Source: Alphaproteobacteria bacterium (GTDB taxonomy: Bacteria; Pseudomonadota; Alphaproteobacteria; SMXP01). From it: a DNA stretch of 64,000 nt. Positions 15,173-22,811 of the stretch are shown piece by piece (the stretch's first letter is position 1; each line of letters opens with the position of its first letter). The notes under the pieces are model-generated. The model was not told the DNA's origin. It searched no databases and worked only from the letters and a program-made list of their open reading frames with translations. The position numbers were made by a program, and so were the translations under genes. Location: positions 300,877 through 364,876 of the forward strand of contig CBDFKK010000006.1 of assembly GCA_965248815.1 (NCBI GenBank), given 5' to 3'.

Positions 15173-15889
15173 ATGCTGACGCGCAAACAACATGAATTGT
15201 TGATGTTTATTCACGAGCGCATCCGGGAATCCGGCGTGTCGCCGTCGTTTGACGAAATGAAGGATGCCCTGGGCCTCAAGTCTAAATCCGGCATTCACCG
15301 CTTGATTACAGCCCTTGAAGAGCGAGGATTTATCAAACGCCTTGCCCATCGGGCCCGAGCGCTGGAAATTATACGCCTGCCTGACGATACGCTCGCCGGC
15401 CGCGGCTCTATGGTACGCGATCGGCCGAAAGGCTTTTCACCCAGCGTCATCGAAGGCTCACGTGGTAAGCAAGTCGAAGTACCCGTCGCCAACGGCAACG
15501 ACGATCACGCAGTCGACGTGCCGATGCTAGGGCGGATTGCCGCCGGTACCCCAATTGAGGCATTACAGAACAACACCCACAATGTCAGTGTTCCCATGGA
15601 GATGATGGCAACGGGGGATCATTACGCCTTGGAAGTTCAAGGCGATTCAATGATTCAAGCGGGCATTTTGGATGGCGATGTGGTTGTCATTCAGCGCAGT
15701 GACACGGCCACCAATGGCGATATCGTTGTCGCTTTGGTTGACAGCAATGAAGCCACGCTGAAACGCCTGAGAAAGCGCGGCGAGACAGTCGCGCTGGAGG
15801 CCGCAAATCCGGCGTACGAAACACGTATTTTTGGGCCTGACCGGGTGCAAGTTCAAGGGCGCTTAGTGGGACTGCTTCGGCGTTACTAG
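15173..15889 (+). CDS. lexA: SOS repressor LexA
   Basis: [27 protein letters not shown] cleavage site, GDSM and TLKR catalytic motifs. Confidence 0.99.
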
Positions 15890-16667
15890 CGCACGGCAGT
15901 GATTGACGCTCGAGGGGCCTGGGCTTGCTGATTTTGGATTTGCCTGGCGTCCTTGCTCTCAGCACTCCTGAGCAGTTTCAAACTTTCCCGAAACGATGAC
16001 CATGGTCTGCTTCCGCGCCGGTCTGCAGCACTTACCACCCGTGGACCACCCTGCTCAAACCAAACCGCATGTGCTCCTTCTTGCTGTAAATCATAACGGT
16101 CGATGACTATTGCATAACGGCGGCACGATCGTTCTTGGGACTTAGGAATAGGCACGCTGGCAACAATGAAATCAGCACGCTGACAATCTTCGGCAAAGGC
16201 ACGGGGGTCTGTAACAAAGGCAACGATGGGCCGGCCAGGATCGACCGTGATGCATCCGAGCACATCGCATCTGTAGAGGCGCGATCGGGCATCGGACTGA
16301 TCATGATCCGGTAAAAGCCCTTCGCCTTGAAGCCATCGTGAAACGGCGAAGCGCGCTTTGCGATCTGACAACGCAAGAAGGTCTCCCGTCGATGAGCGAA
16401 CCGCGAGATTCGAACCGTCACGATCGACGAGCATGTAGGGTCGCTCATAGCTGACGGCACTGCCGATGCCAACCAAAATCAAGCCCACTCCTGCATAGCG
16501 CCAACTCTGTCGCCACAGCGCAAGCCACAGGCCGCCCATCAATATCAATAACAAGGCATATTGCGGCCATGCCGGTGCTGCCATTTCGGAGCCGGACCAA
16601 GTGGATACGGCTTCGGAGACCGAGATAACGAGCTCGATGCCCCATGCCATGGGTACTAGGGCCAATT

Positions 16668-16686
16668 GTTCAAGTCCGAGCGGGAC
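16668..16686. repeat. 19-bp target site duplication of IS copy 1 (GTTCAAGTCCGAGCGGGAC), second copy at 18200-18218
   Basis: Identical 19-mers directly abut both IS termini. Confidence 0.95.
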
Positions 16687-16760
16687 TGTCCGTCATCAGA
16701 TAAATTGGAACAGATTTTGATTTGAGCTAGCGGAGTATATGGCTCATCTGTTGTATCAGT

Positions 16761-17741
16761 TTAAGCAGCGGCTTTGCTGTGTTGCAAGCGCCGATGCTCG
16801 ATCGTTTTTCGCTTGATCCTTTCTCTTTGCAATAGAATGGTTTGGCCGCGCCCAAAGTAAACATCTGCGGGCGTGAGGTTTTGCAGACTCTCGTGATAGC
16901 GCTGGTGATTGTAGTGACCCACGAACTCATCGATCTGCGCTTCAAGATCGCCAGGTAGGTAATAGTTTTCCAGCAAGATGCGGTTCTTGAGCGTTTGATG
17001 CCAACGCTCGATTTTGCCTTGCGTTTGCGGATGATACGGCGCGCCGCGAACATGCCTCATGCCTTGATCATCCATCCAGTCAGCAAGATCGCCGGCAATA
17101 TAACTTGAACCATTGTCAGATAGCAGACGCGGCTTGTGTGCGACATTTGCCTGATCGCAACCCGATGCCTCCAGAGCCATTTCCAACGTATCAGTGACGT
17201 CTTCAGCTCTCATCGTGGTGCACAGCTTCCACGCAATGATGTAGCGCGAGAAGTCATCAAGAATCGTAGAGAGATAAAACCAGCCCCAGCCGATGACCTT
17301 GAGGTAGGTGAAGTCGGTCTGCCACATTTGATTTGGCGCCGTGGTCTTGTCGCGGAACTCATTGGCAGCCTTGATGACCACGAAGGCCGGGCTGGTAATC
17401 AGATCAAGAGCTTTGAGCAGGCGATACACTGAAGCTTCGGATACAAAATAGCTTTGCGTATCAGTGAACCGCACTGCCAACTCGCGCGGGCTCAGTTCCG
17501 GTTCCTGAAGAGCCATATCGACGATCCGCTCTCGAATATCATCGGGGATGCGGTTCCACACGCGTTTTGGCTTGGGAGACCGGTCTTCCAATGCTTGTAC
17601 GCCACCACGCAAATACCGGTCGTACCATCGGTAAAACGTCGTTGCCGGGATGCCGAGCTTGTCCAGCGTCCGCAGCACCGGGAGATGGGATCGCTCGACT
17701 AGGCGGATGATCTCGAGCTTCTCCGATGCGGGGTATCTCAT
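16761..17741 (-). CDS. Transposase OrfB (HTH plus DDE integrase core)
   Basis: WQTDFTY, LDDFSR, LSDNGS, HPQTQGKIERWHQTLK, YNHQRYHESL. Confidence 0.96.
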   Translation of the reverse strand: MRYPASEKLEIIRLVERSHLPVLRTLDKLGIPATTFYRWYDRYLRGGVQALEDRSPKPKRVWNRIPDDIRERIVDMALQEPELSPRELAVRFTDTQSYFVSEASVYRLLKALDLITSPAFVVIKAANEFRDKTTAPNQMWQTDFTYLKVIGWGWFYLSTILDDFSRYIIAWKLCTTMRAEDVTDTLEMALEASGCDQANVAHKPRLLSDNGSSYIAGDLADWMDDQGMRHVRGAPYHPQTQGKIERWHQTLKNRILLENYYLPGDLEAQIDEFVGHYNHQRYHESLQNLTPADVYFGRGQTILLQRERIKRKTIEHRRLQHSKAAA

Positions 17742-18112
17742 GCGCCGTCTCCCCCATCCCCGATCATGCTTTTTTTAAGCAGCCGGTTCTCCAGCACCTG
17801 TTCGGCAAGCGCTTCCTTGAGGTCATGCCTCTCGCGGCGCAGGTCCTTGACCTCGCCCGAGGACGCCTGGCGGGCGGTATCCCCCGAAAGCCGCTTCTTG
17901 CCGGCTTCCAGGAACTCCTTCGACCAGCTGTAGTAGAGGCTCTCGGCGATCCCTTCCCGACGGCACAGCTCGGCGATGCTGTCCTCGCCGCGCAGGCCCG
18001 AGAGCACAATCCGGATCTTCTCTTCAGCTGAATATTGCTTGCGCGTCTTGCGCCGGATGTCCCGTACCGCCGTCTCGGCGCCGTCCTTCAAACTCATGGA
18101 TTTCTGGATCAT
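17738..18112 (-). CDS. Transposase OrfA (HTH plus putative zipper)
   Basis: RKQYSAEEKIRIV, IAELCRREGI, YYSW, ENRLLKK; ATGA overlap with OrfB; A7 run at 17770-17776. Confidence 0.93.
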   Translation of the reverse strand: MIQKSMSLKDGAETAVRDIRRKTRKQYSAEEKIRIVLSGLRGEDSIAELCRREGIAESLYYSWSKEFLEAGKKRLSGDTARQASSGEVKDLRRERHDLKEALAEQVLENRLLKKSMIGDGGDGA

Positions 18113-18804
18113 CTGCGTTCCCTTCGGTCACGACGATGAGCCAGAAATCCTCCGTTACACAATCAACTCCATCTGTCCCACAGGCGCTGATGTCAGACAG
18201 TTCAAGTCCGAGCGGGACGAGCAAAAGCGCAAGCACGCCCATCGGCATGATCAAAAAGCCGACGAGAGGCACAGCTACTAAATTCGCCACGATTCCTAAC
18301 GTTGCAACTCTATTGAAGTGAAAGGCGGCGAACGGCGCGATCATGATCTCCGCGATTGCGGTCGTTGCAGCAAGACCAAACAAATACGCCACGAATAACC
18401 GCCAAGGCGAAAACCCACGAGCCCAAGCCCAGCTTTCGCGATTGTTCGTCAAATAACGATCACGGCGCCATTCGTAAGTGGCAACCAGGCCAATCACAGC
18501 GGCAAAAGACATTTGAAAGCTGACGTGCAATAGGCTTTCAGGTGTCGACAACAAGACGAACGTGGCAGCTATTGCCACATTTCGCATTGAAACGGCGGGC
18601 CGGTCGACCATGATCGCCACAAACATGATCGAGATCATGATAAAGGCCCGCTGTGTTGATATCGACGCACCCGACACAAAGAGATAAAAAAGTGCGCCGA
18701 TGAGGCCGGCCATCGCTGCCCATTTCTTTATCGGATAGTTTAGGGTAATGGGCTGAATCAGCGCTAGGCCAGCCCTCACCGCCACAAAGATCAAGCCGCC
18801 GACC

Positions 18805-18812
18805 AGTGTCAT
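18805..18812. repeat. 8-bp target site duplication of IS copy 2 (AGTGTCAT), second copy at 20326-20333
   Basis: Identical 8-mers directly abut both IS termini. Confidence 0.93.
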
Positions 18813-18886
18813 TGTCCGTCATCAGATAAATTGGAACAGATTTCGGTTTGAGCTAGCGGAGTATATGGCTCATCTGTTGTATCAGT

Positions 18887-19867
18887 TTAAGCAGCGGCTT
18901 TGCTGTGTTGCAAGCGCCGATGCTCGATCGTTTTTCGCTTGATCCTTTCTCTTTGCAATAGAATGGTTTGGCCGCGCCCAAAGTAAACATCTGCGGGCGT
19001 GAGGTTTTGCAGACTCTCGTGATAGCGCTGGTGATTGTAGTGACCCACGAACTCATCGATCTGCGCTTCAAGATCGCCAGGTAGGTAATAGTTTTCCAGC
19101 AAGATGCGGTTCTTGAGCGTTTGATGCCAACGCTCGATTTTGCCTTGCGTTTGCGGATGATACGGCGCGCCGCGAACATGCCTCATGCCTTGATCATCCA
19201 TCCAGTCAGCAAGATCGCCGGCAATATAACTTGAACCATTGTCAGATAGCAGACGCGGCTTGTGTGCGACATTTGCCTGATCGCAACCCGATGCCTCCAG
19301 AGCCATTTCCAACGTATCAGTGACGTCTTCAGCTCTCATCGTGGTGCACAGCTTCCACGCAATGATGTAGCGCGAGAAGTCATCAAGAATCGTAGAGAGA
19401 TAAAACCAGCCCCAGCCGATGACCTTGAGGTAGGTGAAGTCGGTCTGCCACATTTGATTTGGCGCCGTGGTCTTGTCGCGGAACTCATTGGCAGCCTTGA
19501 TGACCACGAAGGCCGGGCTGGTAATCAGATCAAGAGCTTTGAGCAGGCGGTACACTGAAGCTTCGGATACAAAATAGCTTTGCGTATCAGTGAACCGCAC
19601 TGCCAACTCGCGCGGGCTCAGTTCCGGTTCCTGAAGAGCCATATCGACGATCCGCTCTCGAATATCATCGGGGATGCGGTTCCACACGCGTTTTGGCTTG
19701 GGAGACCGGTCTTCCAATGCTTGTACGCCACCACGCAAATACCGGTCGTACCATCGGTAAAACGTCGTTGCCGGGATGCCGAGCTTGTCCAGCGTCCGCA
19801 GCACCGGGAGATGGGATCGCTCGACTAGGCGGATGATCTCGAGCTTCTCCGATGCGGGGTATCTCAT
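18887..19867 (-). CDS. Transposase OrfB (copy 2)
   Basis: Protein identical to 16761-17741. Confidence 0.96.
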   Translation of the reverse strand: MRYPASEKLEIIRLVERSHLPVLRTLDKLGIPATTFYRWYDRYLRGGVQALEDRSPKPKRVWNRIPDDIRERIVDMALQEPELSPRELAVRFTDTQSYFVSEASVYRLLKALDLITSPAFVVIKAANEFRDKTTAPNQMWQTDFTYLKVIGWGWFYLSTILDDFSRYIIAWKLCTTMRAEDVTDTLEMALEASGCDQANVAHKPRLLSDNGSSYIAGDLADWMDDQGMRHVRGAPYHPQTQGKIERWHQTLKNRILLENYYLPGDLEAQIDEFVGHYNHQRYHESLQNLTPADVYFGRGQTILLQRERIKRKTIEHRRLQHSKAAA

Positions 19868-20238
19868 GCGCCGTCTCCCCCATCCCCGATCATGCTTTTT
19901 TTAAGCAGCCGGTTCTCCAGCACCTGTTCGGCAAGCGCTTCCTTGAGGTCATGCCTCTCGCGGCGCAGGTCCTTGACCTCGCCCGAGGACGCCTGGCGGG
20001 CGGTATCCCCCGAAAGCCGCTTCTTGCCGGCTTCCAGGAACTCCTTCGACCAGCTGTAGTAGAGGCTCTCGGCGATCCCTTCCCGACGGCACAGCTCGGC
20101 GATGCTGTCCTCGCCGCGCAGGCCCGAGAGCACAATCCGGATCTTCTCTTCAGCTGAATATTGCTTGCGCGTCTTGCGCCGGATGTCCCGTACCGCCGTC
20201 TCGGCGCCGTCCTTCAAACTCATGGATTTCTGGATCAT
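19864..20238 (-). CDS. Transposase OrfA (copy 2)
   Basis: Protein identical to 17738-18112. Confidence 0.93.
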   Translation of the reverse strand: MIQKSMSLKDGAETAVRDIRRKTRKQYSAEEKIRIVLSGLRGEDSIAELCRREGIAESLYYSWSKEFLEAGKKRLSGDTARQASSGEVKDLRRERHDLKEALAEQVLENRLLKKSMIGDGGDGA

Positions 20239-21392
20239 CTGCGTTCCCTTCGGTCACGACGATGAGCCAGAAATCCTCCGTTACACAATCAACTCCATCT
20301 GTCCCACAGGCGCTGATGTCAGACAAGTGTCATGTGAAGGCCCGAAATGGCCAATAAATGCGCGAGCCCTGATGCCCGCAGAGAGTTAACTACGGCATCG
20401 GGAATGGCTTCGCGATCGCCGGTCAATAGCGCGGCTGCGATCGCACCCTCTGAACCGGGCAAGGACGAGCGAATGTGTTCTGCAATGGCTTGACGAAAAC
20501 CTCGAAGAGCGCCTGCAGCTCGAGAGAGCAAACCGTTGGATCGAGACATGGGGCTCGTGTCGGGTGTGCTGACTGAATAACCCACCGCCCCGATGCGCTC
20601 GAACCAGGCACGCCGCGCAAAATCAAAACCGTCAGGCGAAACCGGCCCCGGAGGAGGCATCAGCATGACCCGCACCTGAAAGCCCATCGCGGGTGTTATT
20701 TCCGCTAACCGTTGGTGCACCGACACCCTCACGCGCACCGGTAGGTCTTGGTCTGCAAGGTTTCCGATCCGGTTCGGCGCAATGACAAGGCGCCAATCGC
20801 CTTCCGGCTGGCGCGCCGCACTCTCAATCCAGCCTTCGAGCGACACTGGTCCAATCTCTCGCTGCAGCACCGGAGCCGCAACGTTTAAAGTACGCAATTG
20901 GCTTACAACAAAGCCGAGTGTAATGGTGAAAACAAAAATGCTGGCGACAAATGCCGCATAACCAAGTTCAGGTGATCGCTCTTCCCAGCGACGCCGCATG
21001 ACAGTGATCGCAGCAACCGCAAAGGCGACAAGACCAACAGATGTGAGACCGGCCGAAAGTTGAGGCTCATACGTCAGGGAAAAGTAGCCGGCAATCCCGA
21101 GACCTAGAGCCACCGGTATCCACATCAACCAGCGATCACGATCCGCCCAAAAGCAGGCGCGTACGAAGCGTCCGGCGCGACGCAGGCCTTCCATCCACAA
21201 ATCGAGTGCGCCCGCAAGACTTCGGCGACATTGCCTCCAATCGGACAAGAACGCCCAACCGCGACCCAGCATAAGTTTTCTACCCAACGGCGGCGCGGTG
21301 CCTTAGCCTTCGACATATCAATGTGCTAAAACATCGGCGCATTTCGGGGAGTCCCCCGTTCTTTGTCCTTCATCATAGCCCCGAGACCGTGC

Positions 21393-22811
21393 ATGTTGCC
21401 AGCATCCGCACCGATAACGCGTTTTGCGCCCTCACCCACCGGTATGCTGCATATTGGATCGGCTCGAACGGCACTCTTCAATTGGCTCTTTGCCCGCCGC
21501 TATAGCGGCCGCTACCTCCTGCGCATCGAGGATACGGATCGAAAGCGATCTACTGATGCGGCCAAGTCCGCCATCTTGAATGGCCTCACTTGGCTGGGTC
21601 TCGATTGGGATGGGGATGAGATTTATCAATCGGAACGCTCCGATCGACATATCGAGGTTGCACAGAGCTTGCTCGATCAAGGCAGGGCCTATCCCTGCTA
21701 CTGCACTCCCGACGAACTAGAAGCGATGCGCCAGCGCGCGCGCGCGGAACAGCGACCGGCAGTCTATGACGGCACATGGCGTGACCGAGATCCTTCCGAA
21801 GCTCCTTCCGATATCAAGCCCGTCCTGCGTTTTCGCGCAAATCATGACGGCGAGACAATCATTCACGATCAAGTCCAAGGCGACGTTTCCGTCAGCAATA
21901 GTCAAATCGACGACTTGATTATGTTAAGAAGCGATGGGACACCAACCTACATACTGTCGGTCGTGGTCGACGATCATGACATGGAAGTGACCCACGTTAT
22001 TCGAGGCGACGATCATCTCACCAACGCCTTTCGCCAAAAGCAGATTTATGAAGCTCTCAGTTGGCAGCCCCCTGAATTTGCACACATCCCGCTGATACAT
22101 GGGCCTGACGGCGCCAAACTGTCCAAGCGCCACGGCGCCCTCGCCGTTGAAGCCTATCGTGACATGGGCTATTTGCCGGCCGCCTTGCGCAACTATTTGT
22201 TGCGTCTGGGCTGGTCGCACGGTGATGACGAAATCATCTCAACTGGACAAGCTCTTGAATGGTTCGATCTCGACGCGATCGGGAAATCTCCGGCTAGGTT
22301 CGACTTCGACAAACTCGATCATTTGAACGCTCACTATATGCGTGACACGCCAAACCAAGATCTGGCCGCGCTGGTCTCAGGAATTCTGAAGCAGCAAGGA
22401 ATAAAGCTAGACCACAAGGCTGAGAGTCGTTTGGTCAATTTAATGCCACAACTCAAAGAGCGTGCTAAAACCCTGCTAGACATTGCAAATAGCTGCACAT
22501 TCTTAATTGCGAAGAGACCTTTGGATTTAACAGAAAATGCCAAAAAACTGTTAGAAAATGAAACGAAGGAGATGCTTTTTACCCTATGGCAAGATTTAGA
22601 TGCGTCCGATCTTTGGTCGGCCGAGGCATTGGAAGCCCGCATTCGGGAATTTGCCGATAAAAAAGGGATGAAATTTGGCAAGGTAGCGCAGCCGCTGCGC
22701 GCTGCACTAACCGGTGGTCAACAGTCCCCTGGCATTTTCGATGTTATGGCTGCTCTCGGCCGTGAGGAATCACTGGGCCGCATTGCCGACCATGCAACGA
22801 CACCGAACTAA
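21393..22811 (+). CDS. gltX: Glutamate--tRNA ligase
   Basis: [30 protein letters not shown]; ATG 21393 preferred. Confidence 0.98.

Follow-up and report, generated by a model that had tools for sequence, protein, structure and literature searches.

How can a single transposase leave target duplications of 19 bp and 8 bp in the same gene? The question is raised by comEC in a 64,000-nucleotide stretch of an Alphaproteobacteria bacterium genome (the window; assembly GCA_965248815.1, contig CBDFKK010000006.1, positions 300,877 to 364,876), where the gene is interrupted by two copies of a 1513-bp insertion sequence (IS). The length of a target duplication reports the distance between the attacks on the target by the two active sites of the transposition complex. 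Both duplications are confirmed here. The 8-bp repeat falls within the norm of the clade and the 19-bp repeat lies approximately one helical turn above it, for which a single integration with one extra turn between the strand transfers has about an even chance of being the explanation.

Target duplications in comEC and across the clade

The two copies differ at three bases (element positions 32, 34 and 738) and encode identical OrfA and OrfB proteins; the difference at position 738 falls in orfB and leaves the protein unaltered. Copy 1 is 100% identical to three further copies in the genome. The first-pass annotation of the window had described two 1513-bp elements with identical proteins, the first flanked by a 19-bp and the second by an 8-bp direct repeat, and all of these observations proved exact, including the coordinates and the difference of 11 bp between the repeats. 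It had also regarded both lengths as independently confirmed by the restored reading frame of comEC. A 787-codon frame does open on the minus strand once each IS and one repeat are removed, but frame restoration determines the repeat length no further than modulo 3; the frame also opens when 4 bp are taken out in place of 19 bp, or 5 bp in place of 8 bp. The alignment with ComEC of G001, a genome of the same genus, is the stronger evidence. The intact 753-aa protein of G001 reads ...LLLMPIGLEQLALTPMSWG... and ...AISGLHMALVGGLVF... across both insertion points and has no indel relative to the window pieces, which read ...LLLVPLGLE/QLALVPMAWG... and ...AISGLHMTLV/GGLIF... at the junctions. Each repeat is therefore the duplication of a single-copy target. 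G001 is the nearest genome and is only 68% identical at comEC in nucleotides, and protein collinearity was therefore used instead of a nucleotide empty site.

Chance matches of at least 8 bp between flanks are expected approximately 0.004 times among the 277 complete copies surveyed below. In short-read unitigs (three runs, one sample), the unique flank continues into 27–29 nt of the element at 4/4 junctions with no differences. This reach is shorter than the 31-letter bridging criterion, and no short-read contig spans an element; several bins within the elements are uncovered, a gap to which no weight is given. The three runs probably derive from the assembly's own sample, and they back the assembly rather than provide independent proof of it.

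The survey covered 277 complete copies of the element and its relatives in seven multi-copy genomes and approximately 160 other loci. The genome of the window (8 contigs, 4.98 Mb) contributed 29 copies of the element itself (IS-A), 14 copies of a sister element (IS-B, 1512 bp, 82% identical to IS-A) and 5 mosaic IS-A/IS-B copies. The outside copies came from 160 genome and metagenome loci (80 of 531 and 80 of 595 relatives found in two scans), five multi-copy genomes and a sixth genome, G181, with approximately 40 copies; 229 of these were unique, complete and bordered by 20 bp of flank or more. Exact duplications were observed in 18/277 copies, with lengths of 8 bp (7), 9 bp (7), 10 bp (3) and 19 bp (1), whereas none of the 277 copies has a duplication of 11–18 or 20–45 bp. 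The lengths thus form one mode at 8–10 bp (17/18 exact cases) and a single outlier approximately 10 bp above it, with no second or third peak.

Within the genome of the window, the 29 full IS-A copies show an 8-bp duplication in five cases, the 19-bp duplication in one and none in 23. Duplications of 9 bp flank two of the 14 full IS-B copies and the other 12 have none; no duplication was found at the five mosaic copies (0/5). One 8-bp and one 9-bp duplication are confirmed directly by two in-genome empty sites that lie inside other repeats. Among the 229 outside copies, exact duplications of 8 bp (2), 9 bp (5) and 10 bp (3) and two 10-bp duplications with one mismatch were observed, and the other 217 share at most 4 bp. 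Matches of 3–4 bp occur in 10/229 of these copies, barely above chance. The element of G181 alone yields 8, 9 and 10 bp, which indicates that the spacing is somewhat flexible.

All left flanks were matched against all right flanks to find duplications split between copies, and only two pairs were convincing: a 10-bp IS-A duplication shared by two inverted copies at a distance of 250 kb, and a 9-bp IS-B duplication across contig ends. Shorter pairs, one of 7 bp in G181 and others of 5–6 bp, are consistent with chance and were dropped. Nothing beyond known repeats was found among shared 10-mers in the 400-bp flanks of all 43 full IS-A and IS-B copies of this genome, or among displaced 7-mers (offsets of 0–15 nt) at 115 other loci. 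A likeness of the duplicated sequences to the element termini, judged by eye against a rough expectation, was not significant.

The element and its copies without a duplication

The element carries two minus-strand genes (Table 1). Relative to orfA, orfB is read in the -1 frame, with an ATG that overlaps the stop codon of orfA (ATGA); the open frame around orfB comprises 337 codons, compared with the 326 aa of the match. OrfB has an rve domain (PF00665, E = 8e-27) and a DD(35)E triad formed by D143, D209 and E245, with a Lys residue seven residues past the Glu (ERWHQTLK). The termini, TGTCCGTCATCAG... and ...CTGATGTCAGACA, are of the TGT..ACA type and fit the 5'-TG...CA-3' rule of the IS3 family; they form imperfect inverted repeats of approximately 29 bp, 20/29 identical by manual count. 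Compared with the NCBIfam IS481 model NF033577, OrfB scores 213 bits, which is under the cut-off of 224, yet positions 2–284 of 284 are aligned. The IS3 model NF033516 gives 197 bits, above its cut-off of 160, and only the C-terminal part of that profile (132–368 of 369) is matched. OrfB is a complete protein with helix-turn-helix (HTH) domains of its own at the N terminus and its own ATG. Judged by these matches, the element sits on the border of both families, with the gene layout of IS3 and a catalytic protein of the IS481 type, and does not qualify as a canonical IS3 element.

Relatives at 71–74% nucleotide identity are frequent on alphaproteobacterial plasmids (303 records), where they are annotated as 'IS3 family' and once as 'IS3-like element ISSsp2 family'. 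Such an annotation can hide an IS481-type core with 8–10-bp duplications. The first-pass annotation had likewise measured both repeats against the IS3 norm of approximately 3–5 bp. Because OrfB is IS481-type over its full length and the clade duplicates 8–10 bp, this yardstick does not apply; the 8-bp repeat is ordinary and only the 19-mer is unusual. Its assignment of long duplications and TGT ends to IS481/IS1202-type elements holds.

Table 1. Positions in the window of the two IS copies, their target duplications, the transposase genes of copy 1, and comEC with its neighbors.
Feature	Position	Strand	Remarks
19-bp target duplication of IS copy 1, left repeat	16668..16686		GTTCAAGTCCGAGCGGGAC; single-copy in the G001 ComEC alignment
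IS copy 1, 1513 bp	16687..18199	- (transposase genes)	termini TGTCC...AGACA, imperfect inverted repeats
orfB, 326 aa, HTH_23/HTH_32 + rve + rve_3 domains	16761..17741	-
orfA, 124 aa, HTH_Tnp_1 DNA-binding protein	17738..18112	-	PF01527, E = 8e-11
A7G run, likely -1 frameshift or slippage site (predicted)	17769..17776	-	AAAAAAAG; orfB frame open from there
19-bp target duplication of IS copy 1, right repeat	18200..18218		within the short-read unitig covering 18172-18839
8-bp target duplication of IS copy 2, left repeat	18805..18812		AGTGTCAT
IS copy 2, 1513 bp	18813..20325	-	orientation as copy 1
8-bp target duplication of IS copy 2, right repeat	20326..20333
comEC C-terminal fragment	15886..16686	-
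comEC middle fragment, 613 bp	18200..18812	-	separates both IS copies
comEC N-terminal fragment	20326..21287	-
lexA	15173-15889		flanks comEC on one side
gltX	21363-22811		flanks comEC on the other side

The gene is broken twice, and DNA uptake by the ComEC route is presumably lost. The two direct IS copies in comEC also provide a ready crossover substrate, whose product would be a deletion of the middle of comEC with one duplication-less copy left in place.

Copies of this kind are the rule in the clade, a feature that the first-pass annotation had missed. No target duplication was found at 259/277 complete copies (approximately 93%), and only 6.5% have one; the duplication-less majority was observed in every genome examined and on essentially all metagenome contigs, which bears on IS-finding tools that rely on flanking repeats. 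Three duplication-less IS-A copies could be compared with an intact in-genome copy of their target (C5:8082-9594, C7:459440-460952 and C6:22406-23918), and the target has lost 78, 1,284 and 19,632 bp, respectively. The open frames adjoining 35 duplication-less IS-A and IS-B copies (60 peptides) were compared with Pfam, and several junctions fuse unrelated truncated genes: an M48 peptidase with an alcohol dehydrogenase, a MacB-type permease with an MFS transporter, a glyoxalase with an S9 peptidase, a family 2 glycosyltransferase with an ABC transporter, and a Pup-ligase or an RTX protein with another IS. Only in the case of the 78-bp loss do two parts of one gene lie on either side of the element. 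The target losses and the fused genes show that the duplication-less copies in this genome mark deletions or rearrangements rather than clean insertions, and this bears on how genome reduction is read in a genome so laden with IS elements.

The flanks of the duplication-less copies carry a weak, mirrored base preference. Among 115 loci, A occurs at -2 in 54 and at -1 in 5, and T occurs at +2 in 44, a pattern of roughly GA(C/G)-element-(C/G)TC, which suggests that both junctions are made by the transposase. Identities of 2–4 bp were observed at 27 duplication-less junctions, compared with approximately 14 expected. Surrogate ends resembling the inverted repeats at the borders of the deleted targets were rejected as chance, with GGACA present only at the 78-bp loss (1/3 cases). 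The duplication-less copies may all have arisen in two steps, or some of them by one irregular step.

Several features of the surrounding genome were also observed. Insertion sequences saturate this genome, and nesting of one inside another is frequent (e.g., C8:4962-5508); another IS3-family element (HTH_21, rve, rve_3) is present in approximately 67 copies, and others in approximately 11–20. The five 1512-bp mosaics (C4:61892, C8:421395, C7:280725, C8:80680 and C7:204066) have the body of IS-A but a right end that belongs either to IS-B or to a third variant, which points to exchange between diverged elements. A segmental duplication (C6:16406-25364 and C6:44412-71486) is 99.2–99.9% identical, and one of its copies has IS-A in place of 19.6 kb that the other contains. 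Copies 97.8–99.0% identical to the G181 element were found in genomes of two different families (L241 and L266 in G383; L243 and L265 in G012), and this near-identity suggests recent horizontal spread. In two pairs of G181 copies (L299/L302 and L284/L305), one flank is identical and the other side is different; either the element was duplicated together with one flank or the same repeat site was hit twice.

Origin of the 19-bp duplication

The two ISSsp2-like copies would have landed in comEC independently. The transposase would normally join the element ends to target strands 8–10 bp apart, and the 8-bp repeat around copy 2 would be the result. In the integration of copy 1, a single event, the two strand transfers would have lain 19 bp from each other, and gap repair would then have doubled the whole interval. 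This spacing would most likely be explained if the second end had struck the next position open to it on the same helical face of the target, one turn (approximately 10–11 bp) further. We infer both the single step and the helical phase as the cause of the length, and consider the chances of this explanation, in which copy 1 is one integration lengthened by one extra helical turn, to be evenly balanced. In DDE transposition, the duplication length is set solely by the position of the two nicks, and repair therefore cannot lengthen 8 bp to 19 bp. The excess of 19 bp over the norm of 8–10 bp is 9–11 bp, which corresponds to one turn of B-DNA. If a long event could fall anywhere between 11 and 45 bp, the chance of a value of 18–20 bp is 3 in 35, which is suggestive but no more. 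Neither flank of copy 1 recurs elsewhere in the genome, where the left and the right flank each gave no other match.

The helical spacing had been proposed in the first-pass annotation, together with the caution that two sites cannot establish periodicity. The caution is upheld. Of the proposal itself, a real 19-bp event approximately one turn above 8–10 bp stands, and quantisation is neither shown nor refuted by one event. Nor is quantised spacing a new idea: length jumps of approximately one helical turn have already been published for the related IS481EU, IS481 and IS1202 elements (PMC10045372; bioRxiv 10.1101/2022.12.17.520857).

Several observations weigh against an extra helical turn. 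There is one long event among 18 duplications, and in the absence of a second peak periodicity is not established. The base class here is 8–10 bp, compared with 4–6 bp in the published cases. Irregular outcomes at the ends of this element are common and need not be quantised, given the 259 duplication-less copies and the three target losses of such different size. In addition, the length classes of IS1202 track transposase subgroups with indels rather than one protein (bioRxiv 10.1101/2022.12.17.520857).

A single step is also assumed if the spacing was accidental. A nick, a break or the end of a replication fork would already have been present, by coincidence 19 bp from the other strand transfer, and one element end would have been joined there, as one of a broad spectrum of irregular integrations. 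The predominance of duplication-less copies in the clade and the wide variation of the target losses are consistent with such a spectrum, and insertion into breaks that already exist has been proposed by Ngan et al. 2024 (PMC11708052) for IS movements without duplication, one of them by an IS481 element; these movements occur at large deletions or duplications. However, a broad spectrum finds no counterpart in the survey, in which the intervals of 11–18 and 20–45 bp are empty (0/277), and the sole long value falls where the published spacing of 10–11 bp predicts. The deletions are equally explained as two-step products of recombination between nearby copies and need not reflect the chemistry of integration. 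Accidental spacing is a tentative alternative, which we regard as unlikely.

Two separate insertions could also produce the length. Two 8-bp duplications made 11 bp apart on sister or homologous molecules (8 + 3 + 8 = 19), followed by a crossover inside the element, would leave one copy between 19-bp repeats. Exchange is rife among the copies of this genome, as the 10-bp duplication split over inverted copies and the five mosaics indicate, many duplication-less copies lie at rearrangement junctions, and insertions cluster, with 613 bp between those in comEC and one target loss of only 78 bp. Nevertheless, in addition to the crossover, two different molecules would each have to be hit independently, at sites 11 bp from one another; both insertions on one molecule would yield a deletion or three tandem copies, unlike the observed arrangement. 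The genome contains the comEC flanks only once and thus no second template, and neither a reciprocal product nor a sub-site allele was found in the read contigs of the sample, although contigs drop rare variants. We therefore consider two steps distinctly improbable.

A further candidate, to which we attach a similarly small probability, lies in the transposase itself. OrfB alone and a predicted frameshifted OrfAB fusion could build complexes whose active sites are one helical turn further apart in one than in the other, and the form or mix used would determine whether 8–10 or approximately 19 bp are duplicated. If true, this would provide a tractable bacterial system for the unexplained 10–11-bp quantisation in the IS481/IS1202/IS481EU group. 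Finally, an assembly or polishing artefact at the repeat boundary is highly improbable: the approximately 30 near-identical copies in the genome are a classic source of misjoins, but the unitigs of all three runs hold the unique flank, the 19-mer and the element terminus on both sides, and the ComEC frame and the collinearity with G001 fit exactly one ancestral 19-mer.

Comparison with known systems

The element shares with the canonical IS3 family (IS911, IS2, IS3, IS150 and IS407) the orfA/orfB layout, a -1 frameshift (here predicted) at a run of A, the DD(35)E triad with Lys/Arg, TG..CA ends and a length of approximately 1.5 kb. It differs in the end-to-end match of OrfB to the IS481 model, with N-terminal HTH domains and a start codon of its own, and in its duplications, since the 3–5 bp of IS3 elements (PMC10045372) are not what this clade produces. 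Literature searches on IS3-family elements with 8- or 9-bp direct repeats returned no paper concerning this clade, judged by title and abstract, and no paper was found by the phrasing that joins the helical turn with the target site duplication of insertion sequences. The relative on plasmid pCAR3, annotated as ISSsp2 by NCBI, is 72.6% identical in nucleotides over all 1513 bp and agrees with the element in termini and layout; this copy has no flanking repeat.

IS481 elements are approximately 1–1.3 kb in length, contain one open reading frame (ORF) and mostly duplicate 6 bp. The element in comEC instead has a 124-aa orfA and the A7G site, and extends over 1513 bp. The TGT..ACA termini are common to both, and the duplications of 8–10 bp fall within the family range of 2–15 bp reported by Kojima 2023 (PMC10045372).

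IS1202 elements are likewise bacterial and related to IS481. For three IS1202 subgroups, Siguier et al. (bioRxiv 10.1101/2022.12.17.520857) describe duplications of 5–6, 16–17 and 27–28 bp, in steps of 11 bp; they also note copies without repeats, which they attribute to recombination between copies. Unlike the element described here, IS1202 has a single ORF, each of its length classes corresponds to a transposase subgroup of its own with characteristic indels, and one subgroup targets Xer sites.

The closest parallel for two length classes within one family is IS481EU of parabasalids, whose DDE transposase is of the IS481 type and whose termini are TGT..ACA (PMC10045372). Kojima 2023 reports IS481EU duplication classes of approximately 4, 15 and 25 bp, even within one family, and places the classes of IS481EU, IS481 and IS1202 approximately 10 bp apart, a distance equal to one helical turn (PMC10045372). 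For IS481EU-7_TV, the reported lengths are 4 bp in seven copies, 5 bp in one, 15 bp in two and 24 bp in one (PMC10045372). The long class is thus frequent in that element (3/11 copies), whereas it accounts for 1/18 duplications here; its base class is 4–5 bp rather than 8–10 bp, and IS481EU is a eukaryotic element with a single ORF (PMC10045372). The approximately 30 near-identical and evidently active bacterial copies described here, which give 8 and 19 bp, could be tested at the bench, which is not easily done with the eukaryotic IS481EU.

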